From: Minisyncoccota bacterium
Lineage (GTDB): Bacteria; Patescibacteriota; Minisyncoccia; Phycocordibacterales; DASSSU01
Assembly: GCA_035708305.1 (NCBI GenBank)
Contig: DASSSU010000020.1
Coordinates: 8,481-72,480 of the forward strand
Length of the DNA stretch: 64,000 bases
Reading direction: 5' to 3'
Program-made: the position numbers and the translations under genes
Part shown: positions 3,829 through 49,487 of the stretch, piece by piece
Layout of the letters: every line of letters begins with the position of its first letter
Position numbering within the stretch: position 1 is the first letter of the stretch
The notes under the pieces: model-generated
The model's input: only the letters and a program-made list of their open reading frames with translations
What the model was told of the DNA's origin: nothing
Database searches by the model: none

Positions 3829-4040
3829 CTCACGGCGGCTTTCTTTGATTTCAAATTTTTTTTCCTCCGAAACTTCAGGTTTCAGTTTTTCAGAATCTCC
3901 TCGCGTTTCTTCCCCGTTTTTTCTTTCTGCATCACCGCCGTTTTCAGAAGAAATTTCTGCCGGCATTTCAAGAAGATTTTCCTCTTTCGGCTCTTCAGCT
4001 TGCGGACTTGAAAACGAAAATGATTCGAATCCCATTTGAT

Positions 4041-31022: not shown

Positions 31023-31025
31023 ACC

Positions 31026-32783
31026 CTATTTATTATTCACCAGTCCCATTTTCTGTTCTATCGTTTTTGGATCCCAAGTCTGCATGTTTGGATGAAGTGA
31101 CGGAACATACGCTTCATTGAGATGATTTTCCTGGATATATTTTTCCACGGCAGGAATTTTGAGCTGATAGAGAACTGTTTCTGGAGTTTTGTATACCATC
31201 GTGTAGAAGTTTTTGAAATACACACTCCCTTCCCATTTGTCAGACACCGGATCTTTTGCGCGCACTCGATCGGGACTGGTCGGGTTGGTCATGATCACCC
31301 ACGGTGTGTAGAGCCATGGACGCCCAAGCACTTCGTCAAAATAGATAAAGTTTCCTTCATAAATATAATTCTTGAGCGGAATGTCGCTATCAAGAAGCGT
31401 GTAGTCATGGTTAAAGCGAGTGGCGAGAATTTTCCCTCCGGTGTAATGCTCTTTGAGGTACACGGCCACCGGGTTCTTTTGATCACGCGATGTAGCACTT
31501 AAGTCATCCCGAATCACAGAAAAATTACTGGCAAAAGCGGTGCGATAAAAGTGCACACCGGTAATCGTAAAAACAAAAATCGCAAACACCGGAATGACAA
31601 GAACCGAAACCCATTTTTGCCGAACGTGAACGGCAAGATATTCCCGAACCCCGACAGCCATGAGCGTGACCGCCGCCACGGCAAACCCGATCCAGGTCAA
31701 CCCGTAGCGGGTATTGTGAAAGCCCACGTACGAGAGGAATTCAGGCGTGTAAATTGCCGCCGAACCGCGATATAAGCTGGAAACCACCGCCGCAAACGGA
31801 ACCAGCAGCGCCACAAATGCCGCGGCGACAATTGTTTTTTTCTTCACCAGCGCAATGGCAAGAATGGCACAAAAGAGAGAGAGTGGAACAAAAAACTTCC
31901 CCAGCATGTAAAAAGACGCATGCAGAAAAAAATTGACGGAGGAAAGTACGCTGTGCTGCGTCAGATCCGAGTTGATGGAAAGGTTCCAAACCTCGCCATT
32001 TCCGATACCAGCAAATGCAAGCGGACTTCCGGCGAACGCCCAGCTATTCAGTACGATCAGAACCATTCCCACCGCCGCAAGAACGCCATAGAGTACCGTG
32101 AGTGCTTCAGATTCGGAGTATGTTTTTTTCTTGCGGTACATTTGCACCCATAGCATGAACACCAAAACCGGAATGAGCAGCAGACCTTCATACCTCGAAA
32201 GACAGGTGAGCGTAACAAAGAGTGCCGTAAGCAAGATATATCTCAGACGCTCATACTTCATCCAGAGCGTGAAGAAGTACGCGGTTCCAAAAAGCATGCT
32301 CATGAAGAGGATTTCTGTCATTGGCACAGACGCGTAGTAGAGAACAAAAGGATTAAAGACGTATAGCAACGTTCCCAAGAAACTCAATATTTTTCGTCCA
32401 CTGAGTTCCAGCAGTAAGCGATACAGAAACACGCTTCCCATGGCAAAAAAGGGAATGAGCGCCGCAGCCCCCATGAGTCCCGTACGAAACAAAAAATCCG
32501 ACAGAGAAAATGGCGCCATGACCACGTGTAAAAGCGGCGGCCACGTACCGAGCTGGCTGACTCCCGGCGTCATGCTGTCGATCAGGATCCGAGCGAAAAT
32601 CATATGTGCCACTTCATCAGCAAGTGCTGTGGTTAAGTGTTTCGTGGAAACATACCACGCCATAAGCGAAGCTGAGGTGACCGAGATCAACACCAGCGCG
32701 CACTCGTAACGATATCGCGCAAAAAAATCCAAAAACCCGCCGCGCTCAGTATTTTCTCTGTTTGTGTTTGTATGCATGTTCAT
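31026..32783 (-). CDS. GT-C fold glycosyltransferase, PMT/GT39-like (protein O-mannosyltransferase-like) integral membrane protein
   Basis: First extracytoplasmic loop carries LADEVAHMIFARIL, resembling the PMT/ArnT catalytic DE(VHF) motif. ~11 TM followed by a large C-terminal soluble domain. 585 aa. Start overlaps the next gene's stop by 4 nt. Confidence 0.5.
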   Translation of the reverse strand: MNMHTNTNRENTERGGFLDFFARYRYECALVLISVTSASLMAWYVSTKHLTTALADEVAHMIFARILIDSMTPGVSQLGTWPPLLHVVMAPFSLSDFLFRTGLMGAAALIPFFAMGSVFLYRLLLELSGRKILSFLGTLLYVFNPFVLYYASVPMTEILFMSMLFGTAYFFTLWMKYERLRYILLTALFVTLTCLSRYEGLLLIPVLVFMLWVQMYRKKKTYSESEALTVLYGVLAAVGMVLIVLNSWAFAGSPLAFAGIGNGEVWNLSINSDLTQHSVLSSVNFFLHASFYMLGKFFVPLSLFCAILAIALVKKKTIVAAAFVALLVPFAAVVSSLYRGSAAIYTPEFLSYVGFHNTRYGLTWIGFAVAAVTLMAVGVREYLAVHVRQKWVSVLVIPVFAIFVFTITGVHFYRTAFASNFSVIRDDLSATSRDQKNPVAVYLKEHYTGGKILATRFNHDYTLLDSDIPLKNYIYEGNFIYFDEVLGRPWLYTPWVIMTNPTSPDRVRAKDPVSDKWEGSVYFKNFYTMVYKTPETVLYQLKIPAVEKYIQENHLNEAYVPSLHPNMQTWDPKTIEQKMGLVNNK

Positions 32784-35071: not shown

Positions 35072-35344
35072 AAACCTCTTTCTTTTTTTGTGAAAAAGTT
35101 TATTTTTAATAATAAGTCTTTGTTTTTACGGGAGATTCCGCCGTTTTTCTTTCGTCTTCAGCTGGTTAATAAAGACGTGCGGTGATACGAGGGCTTACAG
35201 GAATTTTGTATTGCACTTTAAAAGAGTGTACACGCGGAGAGATTAAGAAAAGATGATACTGGTATTTTTAAGAGAGAAAAATTTTTGTCAGCTCAAATTT
35301 TAAGAATTTTTGAGAGAAAAAAGAAAATTTAAAAAACGAAAAAC

Positions 35345-35380
35345 AAAAAAATCTTGCTGAATGCAAGATTTTTTTGTTTC
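35345..35380 (-). terminator. Rho-independent terminator downstream of secF
   Basis: atcttgc-tgaa-tgcaagat hairpin flanked by A-run/T-run (tttttttgtttttcg on the minus strand). Confidence 0.6.
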
Positions 35381-35397
35381 TGAAATTTGAAAAGTGA

Positions 35398-36414
35398 TTA
35401 AGCTTTTTTGGTTTTTTCAGCAAGCGCTTTTTTTTCCTGAAACTTCTGCACGGTAATCAAAAGCGGGGTAGCAACACAGATGGAAGAATACGTTCCGACA
35501 AAAATTCCGAGTGCAAGCGTCAGTGCAAAGTTCTGCGTGGAAGCACCGCCAAAGAAATAGTATACCAGGATCGCAAGAATCGCTGTCAACGAAGTGTTGA
35601 TAGAGCGTGTGATCACCTGCCGCAAACTGTCACCCACCACGTCGGAAAAGGATTCTGAGGTGTATTTGGCATGACCCTTTTTCCCTTCCGTGTGGAGGCG
35701 GAGATTTTCGCGAACTCGGTCAAACACAATGATCGTATCATGAACAGAATAGCCCAAGACTGCCAAGAGTGCCGTGACAAAGAGGATATTGATCTCAAAA
35801 CCCGCCACCAGACCAAGGAAGGCAAAGACGCCGGTTGGAATGAGGATGTCATGCAGCAGCACCGTAACCGCGATCACGCCATATTTCCAGGAAGAAACCG
35901 GTTCGGACACTTGCCGAAAAGCGTAGGCAATGAAAAGAATGATCGCCAAAAGCACAATACCGATCGCATACGCGGACTTAGTGCTGAGTTCCGATCCGAT
36001 GGTTGGACCGATGAAGTTGAAGCGCTCCTGATGAACGTCCACCGCGCCGCCAAGTGAAAGCGTTTGAAGAAGCACCTGTCGGTCACTCTCTTCGATTTTC
36101 TTCGTGCGAACCACAAATCCTTCTTTCCCCACCGGCTGAATGAGGAGGTCGCCAATTTTTTCACGTTCTGCCGAAGCAACATGCGAAGTAAAGTATTGCT
36201 GTACAGCGGAAGCTTGCGGGCGCGTTTGTGGTGCAGTTTTTCCCCCGACTGTATGCGTCGCCGGATAAGAGACTTCTAGAAGCGAACCTCCCGTAAACTC
36301 AATTCCGAGGGGCAAGCCCTTGTAGAAAATCACAAACAGAGAAAGCGCTACAAGGATTCCCGAGAGAGCGTAGAAAAATTTTCGATATTGAATGATAAAC
36401 ATAGAATTCAGCAA
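35398..36414 (-). CDS. secF: Protein-export membrane protein SecF
   Basis: 338 aa, 6 TM, SecD/SecF C-terminal TM bundle motifs (NILFVTALLAVLGYSVHDTIIVFDRVRE). Directly follows secD. Confidence 0.9.
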   Translation of the reverse strand: MLNSMFIIQYRKFFYALSGILVALSLFVIFYKGLPLGIEFTGGSLLEVSYPATHTVGGKTAPQTRPQASAVQQYFTSHVASAEREKIGDLLIQPVGKEGFVVRTKKIEESDRQVLLQTLSLGGAVDVHQERFNFIGPTIGSELSTKSAYAIGIVLLAIILFIAYAFRQVSEPVSSWKYGVIAVTVLLHDILIPTGVFAFLGLVAGFEINILFVTALLAVLGYSVHDTIIVFDRVRENLRLHTEGKKGHAKYTSESFSDVVGDSLRQVITRSINTSLTAILAILVYYFFGGASTQNFALTLALGIFVGTYSSICVATPLLITVQKFQEKKALAEKTKKA

Positions 36415-37914
36415 TTAAGATTCCGTCCTCTTCTTTTTGAAGTGAAACCCGCTTCCAAAAAGAAATTTCGCCGTCGGACTGGTTTCCCGGTCGGACAAAC
36501 CAATAGCAAAAAGCAGAATACGGGTAAGAGTGACAGCAGAGAAAAGCGAGACCACGACTCCCAGCCCAAAAACAAGTGCAAAGCCCTTCACGATAGACGT
36601 TCCTAGCCAAAAGAGCACAATTGCCGTGATAATACTTGAAAGGTGACTGTCTCGGATAGACGGCCAAGCGCGGAGGAAGCCTTCATGTGTTGCATCATGG
36701 AGCGTCTTTCCTTTGCGCATTTCTTCCTTGAGACGCTCAAAGATCAGGATGTTGGCATCCACGGCCATACCGATGGAGAGAATGAACCCGGCAATCCCCG
36801 CTGCGGTCAAAGTTACTGGAATGAGCCGGAAAAAGGCCACGGTTGCTGCTGCGTAAAATGCCAGTGCAAACACCGCAACCAAGCCCGGAAGACGGTACCA
36901 CAAGAGCATGAAAAACGCCACCAGAAGAAACGCGATAATTCCCGCCGTGATACCGTCATTAAAAGCTTTTCCTCCCAAGGTTGCTCCCACTGTTTCGCTG
37001 GAGAGAAGCTGAATAGGAACCGGGAGAGCCCCGGCGTTCAAGCGCCCTACCAGCGTCCGTGCTTCCTGCGGCGTAAAATTTCCTTCAATCACCGCCTGTC
37101 CTCCGGTAATTTTTTCATTGATCACCGGCGTGGAAATAGGCGCACCATCAAGAAAGATAGCGAGGACTTTACCAATATTGTTTCCCGTGATTTGTTCGAA
37201 AAGCTTTGATCCCTGGCTGTTGAACTTGAGTGCTACGATTGGACTGCCTGAAACCTGGTTGAACTGCAAACTTGCGCCGGTGAGGTATCGCCCAGTAAGG
37301 CCGGTTGCGAGATACTGAGGAATGCTCGTACTTGCAGTACTGGTTACTGTGGAAGAAGAAACAGCGGAACTCGAAGCGGAAGTGCTGGCAACGTGGGGAG
37401 TTTGCGGTGCGTTTGGAGTTAAGCTAAACGAAAGCCCGTCAGCGGTGGTGCTTCCCGTTTCAGAAGAAGAAGCAGTGGTGCTTGTGGACTGTGCCGCTAC
37501 AAATTTTGGATTCTCCAGTTTGAACTCCAGAACCGGAGTTTTTCCGATGAGCGCTACCGCCTGATCTACATCAGTAATTCCCGGCAACTCCACCAGCAGG
37601 CGCTGCTGGTTTGCGGTTCCGGCTACCAGACTCCCCCGTTCCACCTGCACAACCGGTTCAGATACGCCGAAGAGATTCACACGCCGTTCGATCACATCCC
37701 GAAGTGCCGCCATGGAGGCATCTACTTCCGACGGATCCAGTTTTGAAACATCCGCCTTGTACGTCAGCTGCGTTCCGCCCGAGAGGTCAAGTCCCAGCTG
37801 AAGCGGAAAGGCTTTTAAAAATCCGGGTTTAGCAGACATCGGCGCAAAGCTGAAGTATGCCACCAGAATACCAAACACAATAAGTCCGATCGCCAATAGT
37901 CTGATTTTTGCCAT
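36415..37914 (-). CDS. secD: Protein-export membrane protein SecD (with Ser/Thr-rich low-complexity insertion)
   Basis: 499 aa. N-terminal TM plus periplasmic domain. The C-terminal TM bundle carries LGLDLSGG and GIAGFILSIGMAVDANILIFERLKEE. Insert STSTTASSSETGSTTADG...SSAVSSSTVTSTASTS. Confidence 0.9.
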   Translation of the reverse strand: MAKIRLLAIGLIVFGILVAYFSFAPMSAKPGFLKAFPLQLGLDLSGGTQLTYKADVSKLDPSEVDASMAALRDVIERRVNLFGVSEPVVQVERGSLVAGTANQQRLLVELPGITDVDQAVALIGKTPVLEFKLENPKFVAAQSTSTTASSSETGSTTADGLSFSLTPNAPQTPHVASTSASSSAVSSSTVTSTASTSIPQYLATGLTGRYLTGASLQFNQVSGSPIVALKFNSQGSKLFEQITGNNIGKVLAIFLDGAPISTPVINEKITGGQAVIEGNFTPQEARTLVGRLNAGALPVPIQLLSSETVGATLGGKAFNDGITAGIIAFLLVAFFMLLWYRLPGLVAVFALAFYAAATVAFFRLIPVTLTAAGIAGFILSIGMAVDANILIFERLKEEMRKGKTLHDATHEGFLRAWPSIRDSHLSSIITAIVLFWLGTSIVKGFALVFGLGVVVSLFSAVTLTRILLFAIGLSDRETSPTAKFLFGSGFHFKKKRTES

Positions 37915-37968
37915 GATTTCGGATTATAGACTGATTTTTTTCCAAGAGCAAGGAATTTTCCACAATTT

Positions 37969-40506
37969 CTATGGTTTTTTCACCTGTGATGTTCCGGAAG
38001 CAGAGCTTTCGGTAGAGTTTGGGATGCTTTCTGTAGAATTGACAGCCGCATGAGTGAAGGGTGATTTCCCCGCTTTCAGATCCCCAAGAATGTTTTTTAC
38101 ATCTGCACTGTCCGGATTCATTTTTTGAAGATTTTCAAAAATACTGACCGCCTGCTGATGTTCGCCCAATCGCTCATACGAAAGTCCGAGATAGTATTCC
38201 GCATTGGCGTATGTCGGGACAAGAGCAATGGACTGCAAGAGCGCCTTCTCTGCCATGTCATATTCCCCATTTTGATATTCCAAAAATCCCAGCTGGAACC
38301 AAAGCGTTGGATCGTTCTGTACCAAAGAAGCAGCGTGTGCGAGAGAATCAGCTGCACCCTGCGTGTCGTTCAAAGCAATCTGGAGACTCGCCTGCTCCAC
38401 ATAGGCATCTGCATAGTTAGATTTTTCTCGGAGAGCATTTTTCAGGTATGTTTGTGCCTGAGCGGTGTTGTTTTGCGTACGTTCCAAACGTGCCATGTCC
38501 AGATATGCCTCCGGAGAATACGGAGAGAAAGTAAAGACATGGGAATAAAAGGCGTTTGACGCTTCATACGCGCCGGAGACGTGAAGTGAGGCGAAAAAAC
38601 GGTAGAGGTTTCCGAGGAAGAGCCAGTTTTGGTAATTGGTCGGATCAAGGTCTTTCGCCGTCTGCGCATCTGTGATCGCCTGTTCAAAGATCTTCTGGAA
38701 ATTATCCATGTCAACCGACTTGCCAGAAGCAGAAGCCTGCTGTTCGATCTGCTGCATTTGCATGACGCTAATTTCTGAAAGTCCGCGGTAGTATGCATCG
38801 ACTTTATCAAGCTTGGCGGCTTTTGAAATTTCCGCCCGTGCCTCCGCGAGATTCTTATTTTGGGTGTAGGCAGTGGTACCTTTTTGAAAAGCTACGGCGG
38901 CACGGTATTTTTGTACGGTCAGATAGATACCGCCAAGAGAGACAATGAGCAGCACAACGAGAATACCGGTGAATGCTGTTTTCGTTTTGCCGGGCACAGA
39001 AAATTCACATTGAGAGAGTTTGACAATCTGCTCCTGCCCCAGAAAAGCAATCAGCATACCCAGCAAGGCAAATGCCAAAGCAGTTACTGCAAGTCCCGGC
39101 GTATAAAACAAAAGCACTCCCCACAGATACCAGACCATCAGATACAAGGTAAGAAACATTTTTTTGCCGGAAGAAGACAGTGCTCGCGAGAAAAACCCCC
39201 GCTTCCCTTCGTAGATCATTCCTGCAAGAAGAACAAGCAGTGAAAAAATCCCGAGCCACCCTTGCGTAATCCCGCGCGTTCCAAAGAAACTGACGGCTGA
39301 CTGGAAATCTACGTTCCACCACGGGGTCAAATTCACCGCTTGGGACTTGTACTGCGCCCAGTCTTTGAAAAATGTTCCCGGACCAGTGCCAAACAGCGCG
39401 TGGGTTATCCCCGTATGTGCAACGTCTCCCGAAATTTGAACCGTGGTCTTCCACGATGGCCGCGCTTGAGCGGTGCTATCCATTCCGGTCAAATGCGAAA
39501 GAGCGGGGTTGATGCGCGGACCAAATACCAGAAAAATTATGGAAAAAAGAAAAACAAAAGCGGGAAAAAATACCGAGCGAAGAAAAATACCCTGCTTTGT
39601 TTTTGGGGTGTGCTCTCTCTTTTTTACCAGCCAAGAAAAAAGGAAAGGGATGGAAACTCCCTCTTGCGACAAGCCAGTGAGTAAAAGAACAGCCGAAAAG
39701 AACACGAGCAGCCAGAGCACCACCGGCAGCGAAAAAACTGCCAGAGCAATGAGTGATATCACCACCATAAGAGATGCTGCGATTTGCAACGCACTTTTTT
39801 TCCAGAAAAACTGCTGAAGACACAGCCCTACCAAAACCGAAAAGCCGAAGAAAACCGGCACGTCATACCATCCGCCAAAAATCGTTTGATACGCCCCGGT
39901 AAAGTATCCCAAAGAAAGAAACGAAGCTCCGAAGATCAAACGAAGCGCATGAAAGAGCGTTAGCAAGAGGAATAGAAGAAAAAAAGCGAAGAAAAAAACT
40001 TGAACATGCTTCCGTTCAAAGTACCGTGCCGAAAGAAAAGCGAGAAGCGAAAAAATTACCGTAAAAAGAAAGGTGTCTGTCTGGATTCCCCGTCCAAAGA
40101 GCGCATAACTCCACGAGGAAGAAACAAGTGAAGAAAGAAATGCTGAGAACACCAGAAGTACCAAACCTACCCACACAAAGCTTTTTGGGAACGAAAAACG
40201 CAAAGCTCTGAGACTGGAAAAAATCCACAGACAAAAAGCCGCTAAGATGAGAATCCCCAGCAAAGCCCCCTTTGAAGTCTCAAGCAAAAGTCCGGGAATT
40301 GGTACAAAAAAAATCGAAACAAAAAAAACCGCTGCCCACAAGCATCCGCTCGAAATCTTTTCCAATAGCGTCTTCGTGTGTATTCGCGAAGAAGGGGGCA
40401 CTCGATGTGAGTGTTCGGAAATTTCTGAAAGCTCTTCTCGCGAATGTTCGTGCGCCGAAGCTCTCACCTTTTTTTCATAAATGCTCTGTATTCTTCTTTC
40501 GTTCAT
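37969..40506 (-). CDS. O-antigen ligase-like (Wzy_C) polytopic membrane protein fused to C-terminal TPR repeats
   Basis: ~12 TM helices over ~500 aa, then ~300 aa of TPR-like repeats (YYRGLSEI..., AKDLDPTNYQNWLFLGNLY, AEYYLGLSYERLGEHQQA). 845 aa. Confidence 0.55.
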   Translation of the reverse strand: MNERRIQSIYEKKVRASAHEHSREELSEISEHSHRVPPSSRIHTKTLLEKISSGCLWAAVFFVSIFFVPIPGLLLETSKGALLGILILAAFCLWIFSSLRALRFSFPKSFVWVGLVLLVFSAFLSSLVSSSWSYALFGRGIQTDTFLFTVIFSLLAFLSARYFERKHVQVFFFAFFLLFLLLTLFHALRLIFGASFLSLGYFTGAYQTIFGGWYDVPVFFGFSVLVGLCLQQFFWKKSALQIAASLMVVISLIALAVFSLPVVLWLLVFFSAVLLLTGLSQEGVSIPFLFSWLVKKREHTPKTKQGIFLRSVFFPAFVFLFSIIFLVFGPRINPALSHLTGMDSTAQARPSWKTTVQISGDVAHTGITHALFGTGPGTFFKDWAQYKSQAVNLTPWWNVDFQSAVSFFGTRGITQGWLGIFSLLVLLAGMIYEGKRGFFSRALSSSGKKMFLTLYLMVWYLWGVLLFYTPGLAVTALAFALLGMLIAFLGQEQIVKLSQCEFSVPGKTKTAFTGILVVLLIVSLGGIYLTVQKYRAAVAFQKGTTAYTQNKNLAEARAEISKAAKLDKVDAYYRGLSEISVMQMQQIEQQASASGKSVDMDNFQKIFEQAITDAQTAKDLDPTNYQNWLFLGNLYRFFASLHVSGAYEASNAFYSHVFTFSPYSPEAYLDMARLERTQNNTAQAQTYLKNALREKSNYADAYVEQASLQIALNDTQGAADSLAHAASLVQNDPTLWFQLGFLEYQNGEYDMAEKALLQSIALVPTYANAEYYLGLSYERLGEHQQAVSIFENLQKMNPDSADVKNILGDLKAGKSPFTHAAVNSTESIPNSTESSASGTSQVKKP

Positions 40507-40608: not shown

Positions 40609-41727
40609 TTAGCGTTCGTTCAAAGAGAGCTCCATGTTTTCGCGGTGCGTCACGCGGCCATATTTGCGCATTCCCATTAAAATACCGAGTGCCCCCATTT
40701 CTGTCACCAAGTGCGAGCCCCCATACGAGAGAAACGGAATGGTTGTTCCTGTTACCGGCAGAAGTCCAATGTTGATTCCCACATGCACGATAATGTGCGC
40801 CATGAGGAGGATGGCCACACCTGCACCATAGAGGATTTCAAAGTTCGTCTCCCCTAGCATGGCGTTGTGAAGAATCCGCCAAATCACGATGCCGAATAGC
40901 AGAAAAAGAATCAGCACGCCGAGAAACCCCCATTCCTCCGCAAAAGAAGCAAAAATAAAGTCGGTCTCATGCTCTGGCAAGAAGTTAAGCCGAGACTGCG
41001 TGCCATAACCGATTCCTTCTCCCAAAAGCTCGCCGGAACCGACCGCGATCATGGACTGGTACGCGTTATATCCTGCCCCACGCGTGTCCGACATCGGATG
41101 AAGAAAGGTCAAGATACGCGCTTTTTGGTAATCCTTAAAAAGAAAGAGCCATGCGCCTCCGAGTGCTACCGCTCCGATGAGCACCACCGCCAAAAGATGC
41201 TTTTTTGAAATTCCCGAGACCAGCACCATGCCAAACCAGATCGCGGCAATGATGATCGCTGAGCCAAAGTCCGGCTGGAGCGCGATCAAGGCAAACAAGA
41301 TGAGAGTATATGCGCCGGAGACAAGAATATGCCGGATATTTGCAATGTCCACATGGCGCCGGGAAAAATATTTCGCAAGGACCAAAATTAAAACAATTTT
41401 GATCGGATCCGTCGGTTGGATAGAAAAGAGACCAATACTCACCCAGCTCTGTGCTCCGTTCACCACTCTTCCAAAAACCAGCAAAACCGCCAAAATACCG
41501 CAACCGGCAGCGTAGAGTGAAACAAGCACTCCGGTTCTCCTCAAAAAACGAAAATCCATGAAAGAGAACGCAAAAAAAACCACAAAAGAAACTCCAATCC
41601 AAAAAAGCTGCTTGGTAAAAAAGCTGGACTGGCCGCTGAAAGAGTTCATTGTAATCAGTCCCGCCAGCATAAGCGGTATGATCGCCGCCACCAGCAGCCA
41701 ATCGATTTTTGCTCGAAATGAAAACAT
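40609..41727 (-). CDS. SEDS family peptidoglycan glycosyltransferase (FtsW/RodA)
   Basis: 372 aa, 10 TM. DFIFASFAEEWGFLGVLILFLLFGIVIWR and PFLSYGGSHLV are SEDS signatures. Confidence 0.85.
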   Translation of the reverse strand: MFSFRAKIDWLLVAAIIPLMLAGLITMNSFSGQSSFFTKQLFWIGVSFVVFFAFSFMDFRFLRRTGVLVSLYAAGCGILAVLLVFGRVVNGAQSWVSIGLFSIQPTDPIKIVLILVLAKYFSRRHVDIANIRHILVSGAYTLILFALIALQPDFGSAIIIAAIWFGMVLVSGISKKHLLAVVLIGAVALGGAWLFLFKDYQKARILTFLHPMSDTRGAGYNAYQSMIAVGSGELLGEGIGYGTQSRLNFLPEHETDFIFASFAEEWGFLGVLILFLLFGIVIWRILHNAMLGETNFEILYGAGVAILLMAHIIVHVGINIGLLPVTGTTIPFLSYGGSHLVTEMGALGILMGMRKYGRVTHRENMELSLNER

Positions 41728-41783
41728 TTTTTCTCTATATTTTTCTACTGTTCAATCCAACTTCCCAACATTATTCCGAAATT

Positions 41784-42566
41784 CTAATCCAAATTTTGTA
41801 TTTCAAAAACATTCACACGCGGAATGATTTCAATCCTTGAAGCTTGTCCAGAAAAAGGCTGAGGCCAGGTGAAGTATGCCTGCGCATCGGAGGTGCGCGG
41901 AAAATTGTCAATGTAGGTTGAAGATGAACCAATCGCGTTTCCGTTGATATCATACACCACCGCCACGACCTGGATGTTGCTGATGTCTGTAAGTGCCGGG
42001 TTATGGAGTGTGACCGTGAGCCGCGGAGCGGTATCAGCATCCGTGAGCGTGCGGCTGACGACTTCGATTTTCGGGGCAGCCTGTGGTGCCCTCTCCCAGG
42101 TGGGCGAACTCTCGAATTCCAGGAAGGTACGTGCAGGAATCTGGTATTTCGTATCAATCCGCGGTTCAAAGATCACAAACCGCTCTCCCGGATTGACAAA
42201 GGTAGTGCCACTGCGGGTGGTAATGAGAATGTTGTTTTGATCGTAAATTTTAAAGGTATAGTGCACCTGCTCAATACCCGCTTGATCATTTTTGTTTTCC
42301 ACGTAGGCAACGGCATTGTACACACCATCAGACACCTGGAATGTTCGATCCCAGTCCACCACGAGATCACCGTTTCCTTTGGCACACAAAAGCTCGCAAG
42401 GACCGCCGCAGTCCGGGCCTTCCTCGCCCTGATTTTGCTTGTGGTCAAAGCACGACGGCGGGCGGTAAGTTTTGACCAACGTGAAGGCTGTCACCGGAAG
42501 AAAAATGAGCAAGAAAACCGCAAGAAAGTAGAGGAATTTTCTTTTTGCTGCCCAAGAGATTGTCAT
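41784..42566 (-). CDS. Hypothetical membrane-anchored secreted protein (Cys-rich N-terminal motif CGGPCELLC)
   Basis: N-terminal TM helix, then a beta-rich domain. No recognisable family. Confidence 0.4.
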   Translation of the reverse strand: MTISWAAKRKFLYFLAVFLLIFLPVTAFTLVKTYRPPSCFDHKQNQGEEGPDCGGPCELLCAKGNGDLVVDWDRTFQVSDGVYNAVAYVENKNDQAGIEQVHYTFKIYDQNNILITTRSGTTFVNPGERFVIFEPRIDTKYQIPARTFLEFESSPTWERAPQAAPKIEVVSRTLTDADTAPRLTVTLHNPALTDISNIQVVAVVYDINGNAIGSSSTYIDNFPRTSDAQAYFTWPQPFSGQASRIEIIPRVNVFEIQNLD

Positions 42567-42639
42567 AGAAATATTGTATCAAAAACCAAGCCGCTCTTCC
42601 ATTTCTTCGCTTCCGATCTTCAGCCGTTTTCTACTTGCG

Positions 42640-43419
42640 TTATTTTTTCGCAGCAACACGGTCACCGATTTCCATAATTTTGCCAAAAATTTCGGCACTG
42701 AGACTCGCCCGTCCCACCAAAAGTCCATCCGCCTGCCCATCGCCCAAGAATTCTTCCGTGTTTTTGTCATCCACTGAACCGCCGTAGAGAAACATCGTTT
42801 GGTCGGCATTTTCTTTTCCAAATTTATCTGTGAGAACACGTTTAACGAAAATCTTCATTTCAAAGACATCTCCCGGAGTTGCCGGACGAAGGGCGTTCTT
42901 CCCGATCGCCCAAATCGGCTCGTACGCGATCACCAGCTGGCTGAGATCCGTTTTGGCAATTTTTGAAAGATCGTTCAGAAGCTGCATCTCTACCGTGCGA
43001 AGGTATTTTCCATCACGATCACGCTTCTCTTCCCCTACGCAAAGAATTACCTTAAGACCGCTCGCCATTGCTGCCTTTATTTTCTGTGAAATATCTTCAT
43101 CGCCCTCCCCAGCAGCGCGGCGTTCGGAATGTCCCAAAATCACGTACGGCACCTTCATACTCGCAATCTGTACAGCTGAGATCTCGCCGGTGTGTGCTCC
43201 GGATACCGCCGCATGGCAGTTTTGCGCACCCAGCACACAGCGCTTTCCAGTAACCAGCTTTCGCAAATCTCCCAAAAAAAGAGATGGCGGACAAATCACC
43301 GTGTCGGCATTTTTGAGCTTTGCCGCTTTGGTTTTTATTTTCGTAAAGGTGGTTCGCGCTTCGGCTGCGGTCTCCGGGTTCATCTTCCAGTTGCCGACGA
43401 TGAGTTTCTTTTTTGTCAT
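42640..43419 (-). CDS. tpiA: Triosephosphate isomerase (start taken at MTKKKLIVGNWKMN; ORF track extends to 43473)
   Basis: LIVGNWKMN, AQNCHAAVSGAHTGEIS, ILGHSERR and YEPIWAIG are the TIM catalytic blocks. Confidence 0.9.
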   Translation of the reverse strand: MTKKKLIVGNWKMNPETAAEARTTFTKIKTKAAKLKNADTVICPPSLFLGDLRKLVTGKRCVLGAQNCHAAVSGAHTGEISAVQIASMKVPYVILGHSERRAAGEGDEDISQKIKAAMASGLKVILCVGEEKRDRDGKYLRTVEMQLLNDLSKIAKTDLSQLVIAYEPIWAIGKNALRPATPGDVFEMKIFVKRVLTDKFGKENADQTMFLYGGSVDDKNTEEFLGDGQADGLLVGRASLSAEIFGKIMEIGDRVAAKK

Positions 43420-43475
43420 ATGTCTGCCAGTATAACACGAATCAGAAACGAAGAAGCAGAAAAATTTGTCCAAAT

Positions 43476-44807
43476 TTACTCTACTTCTTTCCAGGAAGAA
43501 ATTCCCCAGGAACCTTGTGCGCCGGGAAACGTGATGGATTTCAAGCCGTCTTCATACACCAAATCCGCCCCTCCGGACATGACGATGGAATATCCGGTGA
43601 TTTCATGCACACTCACACCGCCACTCAACGAAATATTTCCATGAGGCGCGTATAAAACTACTCCACCCAGTGCCCCACCGCTGATGTTGATCGCGTTCAC
43701 ACTTCCGCCATCTTCACCGCTCTGATTTTGCGAAACAAAAATCACGTACGAACCCTCCGTTCCCGAACCATAAATCTTCGCCCCGCCACTCGCATTGATC
43801 GTGCCATCAGAACCTGGATTGGAAGTGTCATCCGCAATAATCGGCACACTCGCTGTCCCGAGACTTGGATCAACTTTTATCTCTCCTCCTCCCCCAACCG
43901 AAATATTGCCGTTCACCCACACCGGACCAGTGAGAACCAGTACTGCGCTACCCGCAAGGCTTACATTACAATTGATTTTTATATTTCCGATCGTCGTCGT
44001 GGAAGTCGGACTGTACGGACAAGGACCATTGTATACACTGCCGCTTTCGGCTTCTTGCTCCCACCCATCGATCGTCGCGTCCGAAATTGGCATCGTCGCA
44101 AGCGGCTGATCTGGACTGTCCGGATGCTTAGCACCATACACCAAAACATTCGTAAGGTTTTGGGAATAAAATGCATCGCCGGAGATGTTGGAGTTGTCGA
44201 TGCTGTGGGCATACACGTTCCCCCCGGCATCCACATGAGAAACACTTCCCTCCGGACCCGCGGAAACCACATCTCCCGAGATCGAAAGACGATAGCCACC
44301 TCCCGTTACCAGACCGTTTGAATATACATTGCCGGTAATGGTGGCGCCGCCCTTGATATAAATTCCGCCCTCTCCTGCCTGAGCACCCGAACCAAACGAC
44401 GTTCCTGCGCCAACTGTTCCATCTGCCGACACTTTGCGCACCGCATCTCCCGCAAGCGCACTGGAGAGGAGACCTACTTCCGTTGCAGAAATCGACTGCA
44501 CCGTGGTGGTTGCGACCGTTCCGTTCAAACTCAAAACTTCCGTATCCTGATCCGGTATGTCCGAGTGATCCAGACGGTACAGAGCATCTTCCATTCCCGA
44601 TTGCGCCGTGTAGAAAGCCTGGTCGGAATCCATGTTTTCCCGAGTGTTCTGTGCCCGAGACCCCAGTACCCCCGAAAAGCCGATGACCACGGCGGTGAAA
44701 AACGCAAGAAAGAAAAACACGACCAGCAGAAGCGCAAACCCTCCGTCTGTTCTCGGATGATTTTGTTTTGGCTTATCGTGCCTTAAGTGCTGATGTTCTT
44801 TTTTCAT
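43476..44807 (-). CDS. Large pilus-associated protein, PilX-like N-terminal helix + Gly-rich beta-helical domain (putative minor/tip pilin)
   Basis: N-terminal hydrophobic helix GGFALLLVVFFFLAFFTAVVIGF without the Glu+5 (PilX_N-like). Repetitive GGxxxxGNVYSNG/ISGDVVSAG-type beta-helix repeats. Immediately upstream of four pseudopilin genes. Confidence 0.4.
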   Translation of the reverse strand: MKKEHQHLRHDKPKQNHPRTDGGFALLLVVFFFLAFFTAVVIGFSGVLGSRAQNTRENMDSDQAFYTAQSGMEDALYRLDHSDIPDQDTEVLSLNGTVATTTVQSISATEVGLLSSALAGDAVRKVSADGTVGAGTSFGSGAQAGEGGIYIKGGATITGNVYSNGLVTGGGYRLSISGDVVSAGPEGSVSHVDAGGNVYAHSIDNSNISGDAFYSQNLTNVLVYGAKHPDSPDQPLATMPISDATIDGWEQEAESGSVYNGPCPYSPTSTTTIGNIKINCNVSLAGSAVLVLTGPVWVNGNISVGGGGEIKVDPSLGTASVPIIADDTSNPGSDGTINASGGAKIYGSGTEGSYVIFVSQNQSGEDGGSVNAINISGGALGGVVLYAPHGNISLSGGVSVHEITGYSIVMSGGADLVYEDGLKSITFPGAQGSWGISSWKEVE

Positions 44808-44827
44808 GCTCTTTGATTTTCCGCGGT

Positions 44828-45409
44828 TTATGATTCCTGATTCCTGAACAGAATCGTATTTTCAAAATGTTCGGCAGATGCTCCCTCTCCGCCCAAGGTC
44901 AAATCAACCTTCACTCCACTCCCGTGTTTGGCAGAAAGTTCGTTCACTGAAAATTGTGTCACGGGCGTATCGTTTCGCGTGAGCGCCACCCCCGCCGCAT
45001 CACCTTCAGAAATTTCAAGCATGCCGTTTTGTAGAAAAAAACTGATGGTTGTATCACTTCCTTGATCGTCCGTTGTATTTAAAACCAGTTTTCCCGTATT
45101 CGTCCCAAAAGTGCTCTTGCTCTCGTCTACGGATTTCGCTCTTCTGATTTCGTACGCCATTCGATCCATCCCCACTTGTGCAGAAGACAAAATATGCTCC
45201 GAAACACGAAGATCGGAAAAATTTTTCATAGAGGATACGAGCGATTCGATTGCCAAAACTGAAACTGCGCTAAAAATTGCCAAGTATGCAACAAGTTCAA
45301 TCACGGTAAAACCACCACAAAATTTTTTTTGCGGATTTCCTTCGCGAGAAATTAGATTTCCAGAAGGAAAGTTTGAAGAACGAAATGGCTTTTTTTTCAT
45401 ATCAATCAT
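44828..45409 (-). CDS. Prepilin-type N-terminal cleavage/methylation domain protein (pseudopilin)
   Basis: Class III signal G|FTVIELVAYLAIFSAV with Glu+5. Confidence 0.7.
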   Translation of the reverse strand: MIDMKKKPFRSSNFPSGNLISREGNPQKKFCGGFTVIELVAYLAIFSAVSVLAIESLVSSMKNFSDLRVSEHILSSAQVGMDRMAYEIRRAKSVDESKSTFGTNTGKLVLNTTDDQGSDTTISFFLQNGMLEISEGDAAGVALTRNDTPVTQFSVNELSAKHGSGVKVDLTLGGEGASAEHFENTILFRNQES

Positions 45410-45902
45410 TGTACAAATCCATCACATACGCCTGAAGTGACCGCGTACTCGTGCTTTGCCCGGAGGAATTCTTCCACGCTACCGACACGGTCACTTTTTT
45501 GGCGCCGGGATCAAGCGCTCCCGAGGAAGCGATATTTCCGTTCGCATCACGGTATACGTCTTCGAGTTCAAATGTCCGCGACAGCTTTCCGTCGATCACC
45601 ACAGGCGTCGTGGTCGCTGTCCAGTCGGTGCCGTCAAAAATGAGAAAATACGGTGTGCTGGTGGCAAGTGAAGCAAGATTCCCACGAAAGCTCTCGTTCC
45701 GGAGAAACTGTACCGCCTCCATTCCTTCTTCAAGCAAATACCCGGCCTTGCTTTCCAAAAGCGCCTGACTCTCCTGCTTCGCCGCAACGGAAAAGTATTT
45801 TGCGATCGCCAAGAAAAGAATCGTGAGTACCGAAACCGCCACAATGATCTCGATCATGCTGAAGCCGGCTGTTTGAGAATTTTGCAAATTTTTCTTCATC
45901 AT
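45402..45902 (-). CDS. Prepilin-type N-terminal cleavage/methylation domain protein (pseudopilin)
   Basis: AG|FSMIEIIVAVSVLTILFLAIA prepilin motif. 8-nt overlap with the downstream gene. Confidence 0.7.
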   Translation of the reverse strand: MMKKNLQNSQTAGFSMIEIIVAVSVLTILFLAIAKYFSVAAKQESQALLESKAGYLLEEGMEAVQFLRNESFRGNLASLATSTPYFLIFDGTDWTATTTPVVIDGKLSRTFELEDVYRDANGNIASSGALDPGAKKVTVSVAWKNSSGQSTSTRSLQAYVMDLYND

Positions 45903-46384
45903 TCGTTTTCTTGAAGTTCCACTTTTCCGGTGGTAGCAATTTCAAAAACCACCTTTTCGGTCGGATCGGTAACTACCCGAAGTGTGAAAGTCCCCGCATT
46001 TTTTGTCGTCCCTGTGAGCCGGTCAAACACCACATCCGAACCGCCGCCCGCAAGCGAAATATTGGCGATCTCAAGCGACGCCGGAAGCGCCGTGGTTTCT
46101 GTAGAAGTGGAAGTGTCAAACGCCGTTCCGCGGAAAAGCGAAATACTGGAAGTTGCCAAATGCACGCCGTAGTTCTCGCCGTTTTTTGATGCAAGCGTAT
46201 CCGTCCGTGCCTGGTCGAAAAGGGAGAAAAAAATCTCCGTTTGATTGTCCAAAATGCGCGCTGTGCGAAAGTGCGAAAGTGCGGCAATTCCTCCCGCAGC
46301 AAGCAACACGGCAATCCCCAAAACCGCCAGAAGTTCGATCAAGGTAAATCCACGCGAACGAGTTTTTTGGTTTTTGTGCCACAT
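45899..46384 (-). CDS. Prepilin-type N-terminal cleavage/methylation domain protein (pseudopilin)
   Basis: RG|FTLIELLAVLGIAVLLAAGG prepilin motif. 4-nt overlaps on both sides. Confidence 0.7.
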   Translation of the reverse strand: MWHKNQKTRSRGFTLIELLAVLGIAVLLAAGGIAALSHFRTARILDNQTEIFFSLFDQARTDTLASKNGENYGVHLATSSISLFRGTAFDTSTSTETTALPASLEIANISLAGGGSDVVFDRLTGTTKNAGTFTLRVVTDPTEKVVFEIATTGKVELQENE

Positions 46385-46386
46385 TT

Positions 46387-46884
46387 TTATAAGCTCGTTT
46401 CCACTTTTCCGTCTTGGTCAATTTGGATGACGGATTTGAAAACCCGATTTTTTTTTGCCTCGATGGAAAATGATCCGTAGTTTGTCGTTTGACCAGACGG
46501 ACTCAGATACACGATGTCATTTTTGTCCGTACGAAGCGCCACTTCGGAAATCTGGAAAAGCGGGTTGATCGACCACACAATATTGCCTGGATCATTCGGA
46601 ACGTAGGAATCACCTTTGAAAAATACCAATGTGGAAGTTGCCAAATGCACGCCGTAGGTGTTTTGCGCCGGGGAGTGCATGGCTTGCAGCCGCGCCTGAA
46701 TGAGGATGGCCGAAGCATTCTGGGTCTCCTGCTCAAGCGCACGCGTCAGGTGAATATGCGAGAAAGATACGTACGCAATCAGCAGCACCATCGCGGTCAT
46801 TCCCATGAATGCAAACAATTCAATTACGGTAAAACCGCGGGAAAATGCTGCCTCTCGCTCAAGTTTTTTCTGCTGTGTATTCAT
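46387..46884 (-). CDS. Prepilin-type N-terminal cleavage/methylation domain protein (pseudopilin/major pilin candidate)
   Basis: RG|FTVIELFAFMGMTAMVLLIAYV prepilin motif. First pilin gene after pilC. Confidence 0.7.
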   Translation of the reverse strand: MNTQQKKLEREAAFSRGFTVIELFAFMGMTAMVLLIAYVSFSHIHLTRALEQETQNASAILIQARLQAMHSPAQNTYGVHLATSTLVFFKGDSYVPNDPGNIVWSINPLFQISEVALRTDKNDIVYLSPSGQTTNYGSFSIEAKKNRVFKSVIQIDQDGKVETSL

Positions 46885-46895
46885 GGCGTTTGAAA

Positions 46896-48107
46896 TTAAA
46901 TGCTGTTGGACAGCGAGTAAATCGGCGTAATCATCGAAACGGCAAAAAATCCAACGGCAGAAGCAATGACCAGCATGAGGATCGGCTCGATAATCGTAGA
47001 CATGTCCTTCGTTGCAATCTCCACTTCTCCTTCATAAAAAATCGCCAAGCGCTCCAGCATTTTGATCAGCTGCCCGGTTTCTTCTCCCACTTCCATCATT
47101 TCTCCCACCAAAAGCGGGAAGAGGTTGTCGTGCTCAGCAAACGCCTGGTGGATCGGCTCGCCCTTTTCCACACAAATGATCGCCTCGTCAATCACCTTTC
47201 GAAAGTACACGTTTGGCACCACTTGCCGGGTGATTTTCAGCGCTTCGATAACCTCCACTCCGGAAGCGAGCAGAGATGAAAACGTGCGGCTCATGTAGGC
47301 GGCATTCGATTCCTTCACGATGTTTTTGATCACCGGCACATACAAAACACAGAAGTGATACGTTCGCTTGCCTCTTTCCGTACGGAAGAACAAAAAAACC
47401 CCGATGATCACGGCAATAATGAGACCCAAGGCAAGAACCGTGTCTTTCGCCAAAAAGTTGGAAACGGCAATGATCATTCTCGTGGACGCCGGAAGCTGTG
47501 CGCCCAGAGAACTGAAAGTAGAAGTCAAGGTTGGGACCACAAAGATGAACATGAGAATTCCAATAACGACCATGGCAGAAATTACGATCGACGGATAGAT
47601 CATCGCACCGGTGATTTTTTTTCGCATGTTGTAGCTTTTTTCCAGCTGATTGCCCACTACTTCAAGTGATTGTGGAAGCGTTCCCGACTGTTCACCTGCG
47701 CGCACCATTGCCACAAAAAGCTCCGGAAATATTTTGGGGTATTTCGCCAAACCGGAGGAAAGTGTATTGCCGCTCTCAATGTTCTGCGCAAACTCGTCCA
47801 GCATTTTTTGCATTTTCGCGTTTTTGGTCTGGCGCCGAAGCACGCTGAGTGCGCGCGACATCGGAAGCCCTGCCTCCACCATCGCGGCAAGATTTCGCGC
47901 AAAAATAATTTTTTCACGCAGCTTGACCGTCGCGAGGAGATTGTTGAGGTCTTTGAAGTTCCATTTTTTTTCTTTGACTTCATGAATGGAGATGAGTTCC
48001 GTCCCGGCTTTTTTGAGATCCTCCTGAAGCGTGTAACGGTCTTTTGCCACCGTGGTCTTTTCCACCACAGCTCCGTTCACCGCTGCCTTGTACATAAACG
48101 TCGGCAT
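46896..48107 (-). CDS. pilC: Type IV pilus / type II secretion platform protein (GspF/PilC family)
   Basis: 403 aa with two GspF-type repeats and 3 TM. N-terminus MPTFMYKAAVNGAVVEKTTVAKDRYTLQEDLKKAG is typical of PilC. Confidence 0.85.
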   Translation of the reverse strand: MPTFMYKAAVNGAVVEKTTVAKDRYTLQEDLKKAGTELISIHEVKEKKWNFKDLNNLLATVKLREKIIFARNLAAMVEAGLPMSRALSVLRRQTKNAKMQKMLDEFAQNIESGNTLSSGLAKYPKIFPELFVAMVRAGEQSGTLPQSLEVVGNQLEKSYNMRKKITGAMIYPSIVISAMVVIGILMFIFVVPTLTSTFSSLGAQLPASTRMIIAVSNFLAKDTVLALGLIIAVIIGVFLFFRTERGKRTYHFCVLYVPVIKNIVKESNAAYMSRTFSSLLASGVEVIEALKITRQVVPNVYFRKVIDEAIICVEKGEPIHQAFAEHDNLFPLLVGEMMEVGEETGQLIKMLERLAIFYEGEVEIATKDMSTIIEPILMLVIASAVGFFAVSMITPIYSLSNSI

Positions 48108-48267
48108 AAAGAAGCTTTTTTGATACTTCCATTATGACATAAACTTTGAAAATAAACGGGGTGTTGATTGCGAAATGTGTGGAAAAGTGATAAAGTTGAG
48201 CCATTCACAAGTTTTCCACCAAGCAATTCAATATTTCTTTTTGTGAACGAGTCTTGGCTAAAGAGGC

Positions 48268-48921
48268 TTGTTTTTGTTTTTCTCTATGAAACGCGGACGA
48301 AGAAAACCATCACGCCGACCAGATGGAACACGGATTAACGAATACATCCGTGTGCCTGAAGTGCGTCTTTTTGATGAAAACGATCAGATGATCGGCATCG
48401 TGCCAATTGCTGAAGCACTGAGACAAGCACGAGAATCCGAGGTGGATTTGATCGAAGTGGTTCCCGGAGCCGTTCCCCCTATTGCAAAACTGATGGATTA
48501 TGGTAAATTTCAGTACGAAAAGAAGAAAAAAGAGCGCGACGCGCGTGCAAAGCAGAAAAGCACCGAAACCAAGTCCCTTCAGGTAAAAATCGGCACTGGT
48601 GAGCACGACTTGAACCTCAAGGCAAAGCGAGCCTCCGAATGGCTGAAAGAAGGACACCGGATCAAGCTTGACCTTTATCTCCGCGGACGCTCCAAGTACC
48701 TTGACCAGAACTTCCTGCAGAGCCGTCTTGATCGCCTTTTGCATCTTCTCACCACGGATTACAAAATCGCCACACCGCCCAAAAAAAGTCCAAAGGGGCT
48801 GAGCGTGATTCTTGAACACTCCTCCCGACCAAAAACACCGGAGGGCGAGAAAAAAGAAATTTCCGCAGAAAAAGCCGAGAAAACCAAACCAGAAATCAAC
48901 CAAAACCATGAAAACCAATAA
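48268..48921 (+). CDS. infC: Translation initiation factor IF-3 with Lys/Glu-rich C-terminal extension
   Basis: INEYIRVPEVRLFDENDQMIGIVPIAEALRQARESEVDLIEVVPGAVPPIAKLMDYGKFQYEKKKKE matches the IF3 N-domain and linker. The actual start may be a non-ATG codon inside the ORF. Confidence 0.85.
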   Translation: MFLFFSMKRGRRKPSRRPDGTRINEYIRVPEVRLFDENDQMIGIVPIAEALRQARESEVDLIEVVPGAVPPIAKLMDYGKFQYEKKKKERDARAKQKSTETKSLQVKIGTGEHDLNLKAKRASEWLKEGHRIKLDLYLRGRSKYLDQNFLQSRLDRLLHLLTTDYKIATPPKKSPKGLSVILEHSSRPKTPEGEKKEISAEKAEKTKPEINQNHENQ

Positions 48922-49129
48922 ATCCATCACCAAAAGATTTAAAATCACCAAAAACGGTAAGATGTTGACCCGAAAGGGCGGCGGAAATCACTTCAACGCC
49001 AAAGAAAGCCGAGAAAAGCAGCTCTCTCGCAAAACACAGCGGCCGATCACACTCAAGAACAAGGTCCGCGGACGCTTTCTGCCGGGACTCCGGGTGAAAT
49101 CCAAAGCATCCACAAAGGAAACCAATTAA
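48908..49129 (+). CDS. rpmI: 50S ribosomal protein L35 (embedded in longer track ORF 48812..49129)
   Basis: MKTNKSITKRFKITKNGKMLTRKGGGNHFNAKESREKQLSRKTQRPITLKNKVRGRFLPG is L35-like (MPK.KTKS..KKRFK.T..GK). Classic infC-rpmI-rplT order. Confidence 0.8.
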   Translation: MKTNKSITKRFKITKNGKMLTRKGGGNHFNAKESREKQLSRKTQRPITLKNKVRGRFLPGLRVKSKASTKETN

Positions 49130-49139
49130 CCATAAAATT

Positions 49140-49487
49140 ATGCCAAGAGTAAAACGAGGAACCATTAAAGCAAAGCGGCGACGAAACCTTTTGAGTCAAG
49201 TGAAAGGCTATCAGTTCGGACGCAGCACGAAGAAGCGCCAAGCACGCGAAGCGATCTTTCACGCAGGAAACCATGCCTTCGCTCACCGGCGTGACAAAAA
49301 GAACGATTACCGCCGCCTCTGGCAGGTTCAGATCAATGCCTATTTGCGCGAACTTGGCGCACCCTCCTACAGCAAATTTATGGGGCTTTTGAAAAAGAAA
49401 GAAATCGGAGTGAACCGAAAAATGCTCGCTCTCCTCGCAAGAGAAAATCCAGAAGCCTTTCAGGCAATCATCGAAAAAACAAAATAA
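49140..49487 (+). CDS. rplT: 50S ribosomal protein L20
   Basis: MPRVKRGTIKAKRRRNLLSQVKGYQFGRSTKKRQAREA matches the L20 consensus. Confidence 0.9.
   Translation: MPRVKRGTIKAKRRRNLLSQVKGYQFGRSTKKRQAREAIFHAGNHAFAHRRDKKNDYRRLWQVQINAYLRELGAPSYSKFMGLLKKKEIGVNRKMLALLARENPEAFQAIIEKTK

Follow-up and report, generated by a model that had tools for sequence, protein, structure and literature searches.

The 64,000-nucleotide stretch of contig DASSSU010000020.1 from a Minisyncoccota bacterium (GenBank assembly GCA_035708305.1, positions 8,481 to 72,480 of the forward strand), called the window in the following, contains a genuine gene block for a type IV pilus (T4P) of an ultrasmall bacterium of the Patescibacteria, and this block is widely conserved. 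Six tightly packed open reading frames (ORFs) on the minus strand at 43476–48107, followed by tpiA, encode the platform protein PilC, four small proteins with prepilin motifs, and a protein of 443 residues, in agreement with the original prediction (Table 1). We estimate with a probability of about 0.7 that the block encodes the PilC platform together with the complete set of core minor pilins that form the priming and tip complex of a T4P, with the beta-solenoid of the 443-residue protein positioned at the tip. According to structure prediction, this protein has the architecture of ComZ from Thermus thermophilus, in which a pilin domain and a large triangular beta-solenoid, similar to that of ice-binding proteins (IBPs), are combined in one chain.

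The block does not represent a new type of machine. T4P of bacteria from the candidate phyla radiation (CPR) and large PilX tip pilins of Saccharibacteria have been described already, and full-text literature searches retrieved no paper joining ComZ with Patescibacteria terms, or DUF3494-like folds with CPR pilins. Therefore, the family of the 443-residue protein is a sequence orphan within the known system of ComZ/GspK tip pilins. T4P are nearly universal in Patescibacteria, where they are thought to underlie host attachment and DNA uptake, and the pilins of these organisms are so divergent that most of them are annotated as hypothetical. The analysis places a large unannotated family, which comprises approximately 990 clusters at E ≤ 1e-30 and lacks a Pfam or NCBIfam model, in the ComZ/GspK tip-pilin class, and describes an H-I-J-K priming module whose association with pilB and pilC is maintained across Paceibacteria. 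It also provides a concrete protein for tests of DNA or host binding.

The four small proteins carry class III signal peptides, and in each of them a hydrophobic helix comes after the prepilin motif. In a strict scan for prepilin motifs that covered both strands of the 64-kb window, exactly these four were returned. Therefore, the run of prepilin genes is far beyond chance. The original prediction described the genes as coupled by overlaps of 4–8 nucleotides. Such overlaps are present at the 161/166-residue (4 nucleotides) and 166/193-residue (8 nucleotides) junctions, whereas the other three junctions are gaps of 11 nucleotides (pilC/165 residues), 2 nucleotides (165/161 residues), and 20 nucleotides (193/443 residues). 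The same block is present as an identical copy in an independent Logan assembly. A promoter and terminator consensus scan of 41500–48400 gave a site count not above that of shuffled sequence.

Table 1. Genes of the pilus block and segments of the 443-residue protein (positions in the window; a slash marks the putative prepilin cleavage site)
Feature	Position	Strand	Details
pilC, polytopic inner-membrane platform of the GspF/PilC family	46896–48107	-	403 residues
Extra GspH-like minor prepilin, lineage-specific paralogue	46387–46884	-	165 residues; G/FTVIE; GspH E 0.0044
Minor prepilin, probably of GspH/FimU class	45899–46384	-	161 residues; G/FTLIE; GspH TIGR01708 E 2.3e-7
Minor prepilin, weakly assigned to PilV/GspI class	45402–45902	-	166 residues; G/FSMIE; PilV TIGR02523 E 4.7e-5
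Minor prepilin of GspJ/PilW class by predicted fold	44828–45409	-	193 residues; G/FTVIE; NCBIfam GspJ match
Putative large tip pilin, ComZ-like and GspK-class in predicted fold	43476–44807	-	443 residues
Residues 1–80: basic leader to Gly23, then alpha-1 helix (22–80) without Glu5	44568–44807	-	sequence and prediction
Residues 81–135: predicted four-stranded pilin head sheet	44403–44567	-	
Residues 136–420: predicted IBP-like beta-solenoid with one long side helix (243–256)	43548–44402	-	
Residues 421–443: linker and conserved C-terminal strand (434–442; W434/W439)	43479–43547	-	pLDDT profile, conserved aromatics

Predicted structure of the 443-residue protein

The AlphaFold2 model of the 443-residue protein, built on an alignment of 66 sequences, has a predicted local distance difference test score (pLDDT) of 88.5 and a predicted template modelling score of 0.73. 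It contains a helix formed by residues 22–80, four strands between residues 88 and 132, a solenoid of residues 142–417 broken by a helix of residues 243–256, and a strand of residues 434–442. The model has a long pilin-type N-terminal helix, and its predicted beta-solenoid bears out the beta-helix originally proposed for this protein. The pilin domain is predicted to have a GspK-like fold, and the order of the modelled elements, with one helix, four strands, the solenoid, and a single C-terminal strand, fits an insertion of the solenoid between the penultimate and last strands. By analogy with ComZ, the last strand would return to the pilin sheet.

In a Foldseek comparison of the model to the PDB, the top three matches are chains of T. 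thermophilus ComZ (6QVI, E-values of 9.5e-8 to 3e-7, probability 1.0), and IBPs rank after them. In ComZ (TTC0857/TTHA1220), an FfIBP-like solenoid is inserted between the penultimate and last strands of a GspK-like pilin domain, and the protein has been argued on steric grounds to occupy the pilus tip (PMC6561018). It binds the GspI-like protein PilA2, as well as DNA via K98 and K233 (PMC6561018). The Kd of ComZ for PilA2 is approximately 0.7 µM. The gene order in Thermus is TTHA1218 (GspI-like), TTHA1219 (GspJ-like), and TTHA1220, which encodes ComZ (PMC5131608). Correspondingly, the gene of the 443-residue protein is located directly after that of a GspJ-class pilin, itself preceded by that of a putative GspI-class pilin, and the likeness to ComZ extends to the hydrophobic N-terminal helix and to the predicted GspK-like pilin domain and large triangular solenoid related to DUF3494. 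However, the two proteins have no detectable sequence similarity. The chain is 443 residues long here and more than 500 in ComZ, with solenoids of approximately 280 and 380 residues, respectively. In contrast to ComZ, the 443-residue protein is strongly acidic, its family has a conserved Gly-Gln putative cleavage site, and it originates from a monoderm CPR bacterium, so that it has no secretin to pass.

The N-terminus of the 443-residue protein reads MKKEHQHLRHDKPKQNHPRTDGG/FALLLVVFFF (...RTDGG/FALLLVVFFF), lacks Glu at position +5, and continues into a long predicted helix, as expected from the pilin-type N-terminus without Glu that had been recognized in it. The N-terminal consensus of 66 homologues is RG/QAxIxxVxFFL, with the Gly kept. 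Position +1 is Gln in 44 of 58 sequences, and position +5 is Thr, Leu, Ile, or Val, but never Glu, in 66 sequences. These features resemble GspK, XcpX, and PilX of P. aeruginosa, which are the last in the H-I-J-K series, lack Glu5, and have N-termini of the form RG/(Q/V)A followed by hydrophobic residues (RG/VALLIVL in E. coli GspK). However, the inserted domain of GspK is alpha-helical rather than a beta-solenoid, its reported insertion point differs from the ComZ-type insertion after the penultimate strand, and the 443-residue protein has no match to Pfam T2SSK or PilX_N.

Another resemblance is to PilX1 and PilX2 of the Saccharibacteria strain TM7x, which are large patescibacterial minor pilins with bulky accessory domains and are predicted to be tip proteins (PMC11623550). 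They are not recognized as PilD substrates by standard predictors (PMC11623550). Both of their accessory domains, a beta-jelly-roll and a seven-bladed beta-propeller, are appended at the C-terminus, whereas that of the 443-residue protein is a predicted IBP-like solenoid. PilX2 has been shown to act in host binding and has no role in competence. DUF3494 ice-binding proteins (7BWX, 3WP9, FfIBP) are stand-alone secreted proteins without a pilin domain, unlike the 443-residue protein, whose sequence is not matched by the ice-binding family of Pfam. An ice-binding role of the solenoid was set aside, given that the likeness to IBPs is without functional meaning in ComZ and that the gene is part of a pilus operon.

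The protein is identical to the "hypothetical protein VFM02_02240" of Candidatus Paceibacterota at NCBI. An initial search for relatives identified 88 homologues, all from Patescibacteria and all annotated as hypothetical, and an exhaustive profile search of 1.84 billion representatives identified 992 clusters at E ≤ 1e-30 and 1,665 at E ≤ 1e-10. Across the class, the majority-residue frequency is 0.56–0.59 in the solenoid versus 0.41–0.46 in the pilin domain. The family has an invariant R124 at the junction of the domains, and K277. These residues hint indirectly at DNA binding, to be weighed against an overall charge that is acidic.

Some members of the family reach 590–780 residues because one solenoid loop carries an insertion, corresponding to residues approximately 170–176 of the 443-residue protein (P0054, P0027, P0049, P0053; P0129, P0131, P0132, P0199, P0203, and others). 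The insert in P0054 comprises approximately 325 residues with LVIVD/beta-propeller Pfam domains, and many other members have inserts of various sizes at the same loop. This insertion hot spot may encode specificity.

Several results weigh against the assignment of the block to a complete minor-pilin complex with a ComZ-like tip. The folds of the block proteins are predictions. No Pfam or NCBIfam model, including T2SSK, PilX_N, and GspK, matched the 443-residue protein at E ≤ 0.1, and hhalign gave its family a probability of 1.2% when compared to E. coli GspK. The profile of 66 sequences had no match to ComZ among all PDB chain sequences even at E ≤ 10, and that search returned chance matches only, such as the KEOPS subunit TPRKB at E of approximately 0.09. 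Furthermore, PilB, PilT, PilD (A24 peptidase), a clear PilM, and a major pilin were not found in the window by Pfam annotation of the sizeable ORFs and a motif scan.

Platform protein and small prepilins

PilC contains the Pfam domain T2SSF in two stretches (E 1.6e-54) and is a two-domain platform protein of approximately 400 residues, as had been proposed for the gene preceding the pilins. Its full-length alignments to NCBIfam models score 298 bits for GspF and 295 bits for Thermus-type PilC, all under the equivalog cut-offs.

The Pfam model N_methyl matches the 161-residue (26.5 bits) and 166-residue (21.7 bits) proteins above its cut-off and the 193-residue protein below it, and no N_methyl match was found for the 165-residue protein. 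The NCBIfam matches of the small proteins are weak and below cut-off, yet they are ordered, with the 165- and 161-residue proteins matching GspH, the 166-residue protein matching PilV/GspI types, and the 193-residue protein matching GspJ. The orthologues of the small pilins were gathered from 80 related loci, and each was scanned separately.

The alignment of the 161-residue protein to GspH extends past the N-terminal helix and scores 31 bits against a curated cut-off of 80. Among the orthologues from the first position, 38 of 42 match GspH and 39 of 42 match the PpdA-type model PRK10506, with the best E-values of approximately 1e-11 and all scores below the curated cut-offs. The 165-residue protein, which is 28% identical to the 161-residue protein, is a divergent second H-like copy and a lineage-specific paralogue. 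The C-terminal GRxR motif of FimT-type DNA binding is absent by eye from both GspH-like proteins. The 166-residue protein aligns to nearly the whole PilV model TIGR02523 below the cut-off, and the commonest matches of the orthologues from the second position are PilV (14/41), ComGE (12/41), and XpsI (6/41), which weakly suggests the PilV/GspI class. The model of the 193-residue protein (pLDDT 86.5) has the lollipop fold of pilins, with a helix of residues 35–89 and six strands, and is predicted to be of the GspJ type; the 443-residue protein is likewise predicted to have the lollipop fold. A single-sequence database search with this pilin found nothing beyond itself.

Alignments of the four families were also compared by hhalign to E. 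coli GspG/H/I/J/K and PpdA/PpdB/YgdB/PpdC. Mostly the N-terminal helix was aligned, and the longest alignments follow the H, I, J order. The GspH-like family aligns to E. coli GspH with a probability of 95.5% over 77 columns, and GspG scores equally. Profiles of three small-pilin families matched PDB sequences only within the N-terminal helices of assorted pilins.

Public gene calls cut into the prepilin motifs of the block, and the longer starts used here are backed by the conservation of the motifs in relatives. The NCBI entry VFM02_02245 for the 193-residue gene is 158 residues long and starts at Val36 within GFTVIE, and the Logan call for the 166-residue gene is 151 residues long and starts at Met16 within GFSMIE. 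The present analysis corrects this clipping of prepilin motifs in the annotation.

Conservation of the block and its neighbourhood

When one genome per GTDB species was scanned, 150 loci were found to encode a relative of the 443-residue protein, and 80 of them were fetched. All the loci belong to Patescibacteria, mostly to Paceibacteria lineages. The order in relatives is pilB-pilC-H-I-J-ComZ-like-tpiA, often continued by pgk-recJ-rnh-comEC, and the commonest arrangement consists of pilC, three pilins, the large protein, and tpiA. The usual number of small pilins is three and not four. Three small pilins, with the large protein as the last of the H-I-J-K series, are present at 54 of 62 loci, and none of the other genomes has four. 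The two loci counted with four members are the organism's own Logan contig and L056, in which the fourth member is a second ComZ-like gene. In L056, tandem ComZ-like genes encoding 447 and 451 residues follow the three small pilins (3147–5812, plus strand), and at one other related locus ComZ-like genes flank the pilins on both sides.

Related loci keep pilC at this position in 73 cases, and pilB is upstream of pilC on the same strand in all 47 loci with enough flank, directly adjacent in 33 of them. At the other loci, putative toxin-antitoxin or other inserted genes separate the two. In relatives, pilB encodes a T2SSE ATPase of 583 residues that contains an MshEN domain (E 1e-127). Downstream of the pilins, tpiA is adjacent at 47 of 71 loci, and pgk (52/64), recJ (37/56), and comEC (36/49) are located within 10 kb.

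The region between pilB and pilC is variable. Small genes in this position at L039 (4108–4762) and L010 (5887–6498) resemble toxin-antitoxin or nucleotidyltransferase modules in their N-terminal sequences by eye, and the gap in L046 contains a PulG-like prepilin gene on the opposite strand (6771–7268, minus strand; N_methyl E 1.2e-8, weak T2SSG match), whose product is a possible major pilin. In L015 (3404–6436) and L025 (2227–5160, plus strand), pilB and pilC form one ORF of approximately 1,000 residues, which may be a real fusion of the ATPase and the platform or an assembly or frameshift artefact.

In the window, the position at which the analysed relatives carry pilB is occupied by the divergent genes infC-rpmI-rplT (48108–49487, plus strand), which mark a rearrangement breakpoint. 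PilB, Pgk, RecJ, and ComEC of a relative have no tblastn match in the window. The block is the conserved core of the locus, which lost the pilB and pgk-recJ-comEC flanks by rearrangement and gained the H-like paralogue. The absence of PilB, PilT, and a prepilin peptidase next to the block, pointed out from the sequence originally, holds for the whole window by Pfam scans of its sizeable ORFs. The presence of pilB in all 47 relatives with enough flank and its absence here support the original conclusion that the block depends on genes elsewhere in the genome.

Proposed assembly and ligand

Minor pilins from type II secretion systems (T2SS) and T4P include the GspIJK trimer, and the core minor pilins prime assembly and end up at the tip. 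From the motifs, gene order, predicted folds, and conservation described above, we infer how the proteins of the block would be processed, in which order they would assemble, where the large subunit would be located, and what it would bind. The small prepilins would be held in the membrane by their alpha-1 helices and cut after the conserved Gly by a peptidase encoded elsewhere. The GspI-like, GspJ-like, and large GspK-class subunits would bundle their helices into a priming complex, which the GspH-like subunit or subunits would connect to the major pilin. The large subunit may lack Glu5 because nothing would sit above it. PilB would drive PilC to insert the major pilin, presumably encoded like PilB elsewhere in the genome, beneath the complex. 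With the major pilin added underneath, the complex would therefore end at the pilus tip, where the 443-residue subunit would cap the fibre and display its solenoid as a distal binding module.

The ligand of this module is tentatively proposed to be DNA, captured for ComEC-dependent uptake as by Thermus ComZ, in preference to a host surface, because of the ComZ precedent, the proximity of recJ and comEC to the block in relatives, and the stronger conservation of the solenoid than of the pilin domain. Both DNA and host-surface binding may apply. However, several findings speak against DNA. The isoelectric point (pI) of the 443-residue protein is 4.2, the median pI of the family is 5.0, and the median net charge is -12. 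No DNA-binding lysines can be aligned with those of ComZ, and tblastn of the window places neither comEC nor recJ near the block in the present genome. Because tpiA and pgk share the same synteny, the gene order may be a mere conserved backbone. Host binding in Saccharibacteria is mediated by large minor pilins of the PilX type, and the essentiality of T4P there is unrelated to competence.

A more specific proposal, which we regard as unlikely, is that the family is the Paceibacteria counterpart of ComZ, a DNA receptor at the tip that feeds ComEC, with the solenoid loop accepting exchangeable adhesin modules, for example beta-propellers, that are specific to the host. If true, one tip subunit would couple DNA scavenging by organisms unable to make nucleotides with host recognition.

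Alternative explanations

It is quite possible, if short of an even chance, that the block has the same role in assembly and that the solenoid is an adhesin that binds glycans or the envelope of the host surface to attach an epibiont, rather than a DNA receptor. In TM7x, PilX1 and PilX2 bear accessory domains, host binding requires PilX2, and wild-type competence is retained in T4P-2 mutants; in S. epibionticum, T4P are essential and comEC is not. The inserts in a subset of the family at one solenoid loop, including that of approximately 325 residues with LVIVD/beta-propeller domains, and the acidic surface charge are also consistent with an adhesin. However, conservation across class-level diversity is highest in the solenoid, which a host-specific adhesin would not be expected to show, the best structural match over the full length is a competence pilin that binds DNA, and comEC and recJ are close by in most relatives. 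An operon of the Firmicute ComG type, with ComGB and ComGD/E/F/G forming a pseudopilus for DNA uptake only, is improbable. The layout of a platform gene, pilins, and a last pilin without Glu agrees with it, as do weak matches to ComGD, ComGE, and ComGF in many family members. In contrast, PilC scores 137.8 bits against the ComGB model (cut-off 240), far under its GspF and PilC scores, no ComGC-like major pilin follows pilC, and the first pilin is GspH-like. The MshEN N-terminal domain of the relatives' PilB is typical of the motors of type IVa pili, MSHA, and T2SS, and ComGG is not known to contain a beta-solenoid.

The rearrangement could have left the block as a decaying, non-functional remnant, given that pilB is upstream in all 47 relatives and is replaced here by infC-rpmI-rplT on the opposite strand. 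This is very improbable, because the six ORFs are all intact, have lengths typical of the family, and preserve their motifs; an identical copy was assembled independently, and T4P genes are commonly spread over several loci in Patescibacteria. The least credible explanation is a T2SS pseudopilus, in which GspF and GspH-I-J-K would expel folded proteins. PilC does score best against GspF (298 bits), and the minor pilins match families and structures of T2SS pseudopilins, but all NCBIfam scores are under the equivalog cut-offs. Neither the Pfam scans of the window nor the conserved neighbours at the 80 loci revealed a secretin, GspC, GspL, GspM, or another T2SS-specific gene, so that the original view of the block as T4P-like stands. 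CPR cells are regarded as monoderm, and a T2SS would therefore have no outer membrane to cross. The minor pilins of Thermus T4P are likewise closer to T2SS pseudopilins than to other pilins (PMC5131608).

Other genes of the window

The other sizeable ORFs of the window have Pfam matches to housekeeping proteins, including aminoacyl-tRNA synthetases, ribosomal proteins, secY, secDF, and ftsW/rodA, and further to glycosyltransferases, an ABC transporter, and a FIST/two-component cluster. The partial gene at the left edge encodes an actin-like protein with weak matches to FtsA (PF14450, E 2e-4) and a PilM-like model (E 4e-4), both far below the cut-offs. It adjoins the gene of a 571-residue protein (1102–2817, minus strand) that carries a Laminin_G_3 (ConA-like lectin) domain (E 3.6e-12) and, at its N-terminus, a membrane or signal segment, and is likely a surface protein.

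A 126-residue ORF at 11680–12060 (minus strand), which adjoins a uracil-DNA glycosylase gene and a response regulator, matches the Pfam family T4SS_pilin (PF18895, E 5.9e-7, 29.9 bits, cut-off 26.6). Its product may be a pilin of the Patescibacteria-type type IV secretion system and would then have no relation to the T4P block.

Large envelope-glycan genes are located 3–15 kb downstream of the pilus block (28803–40506, minus strand), with secDF between them. They encode a glycosyltransferase family 2 (GT2) protein of 739 residues, a PMT_2-like protein of 585 residues, a double-GT2 protein of 763 residues, and a polytopic protein of 845 residues with C-terminal tetratricopeptide repeats. A possible link of this run is to the glycosylation of pilins or the cell surface. 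At one related locus, a homologue of the 845-residue protein is encoded just upstream of pilC.

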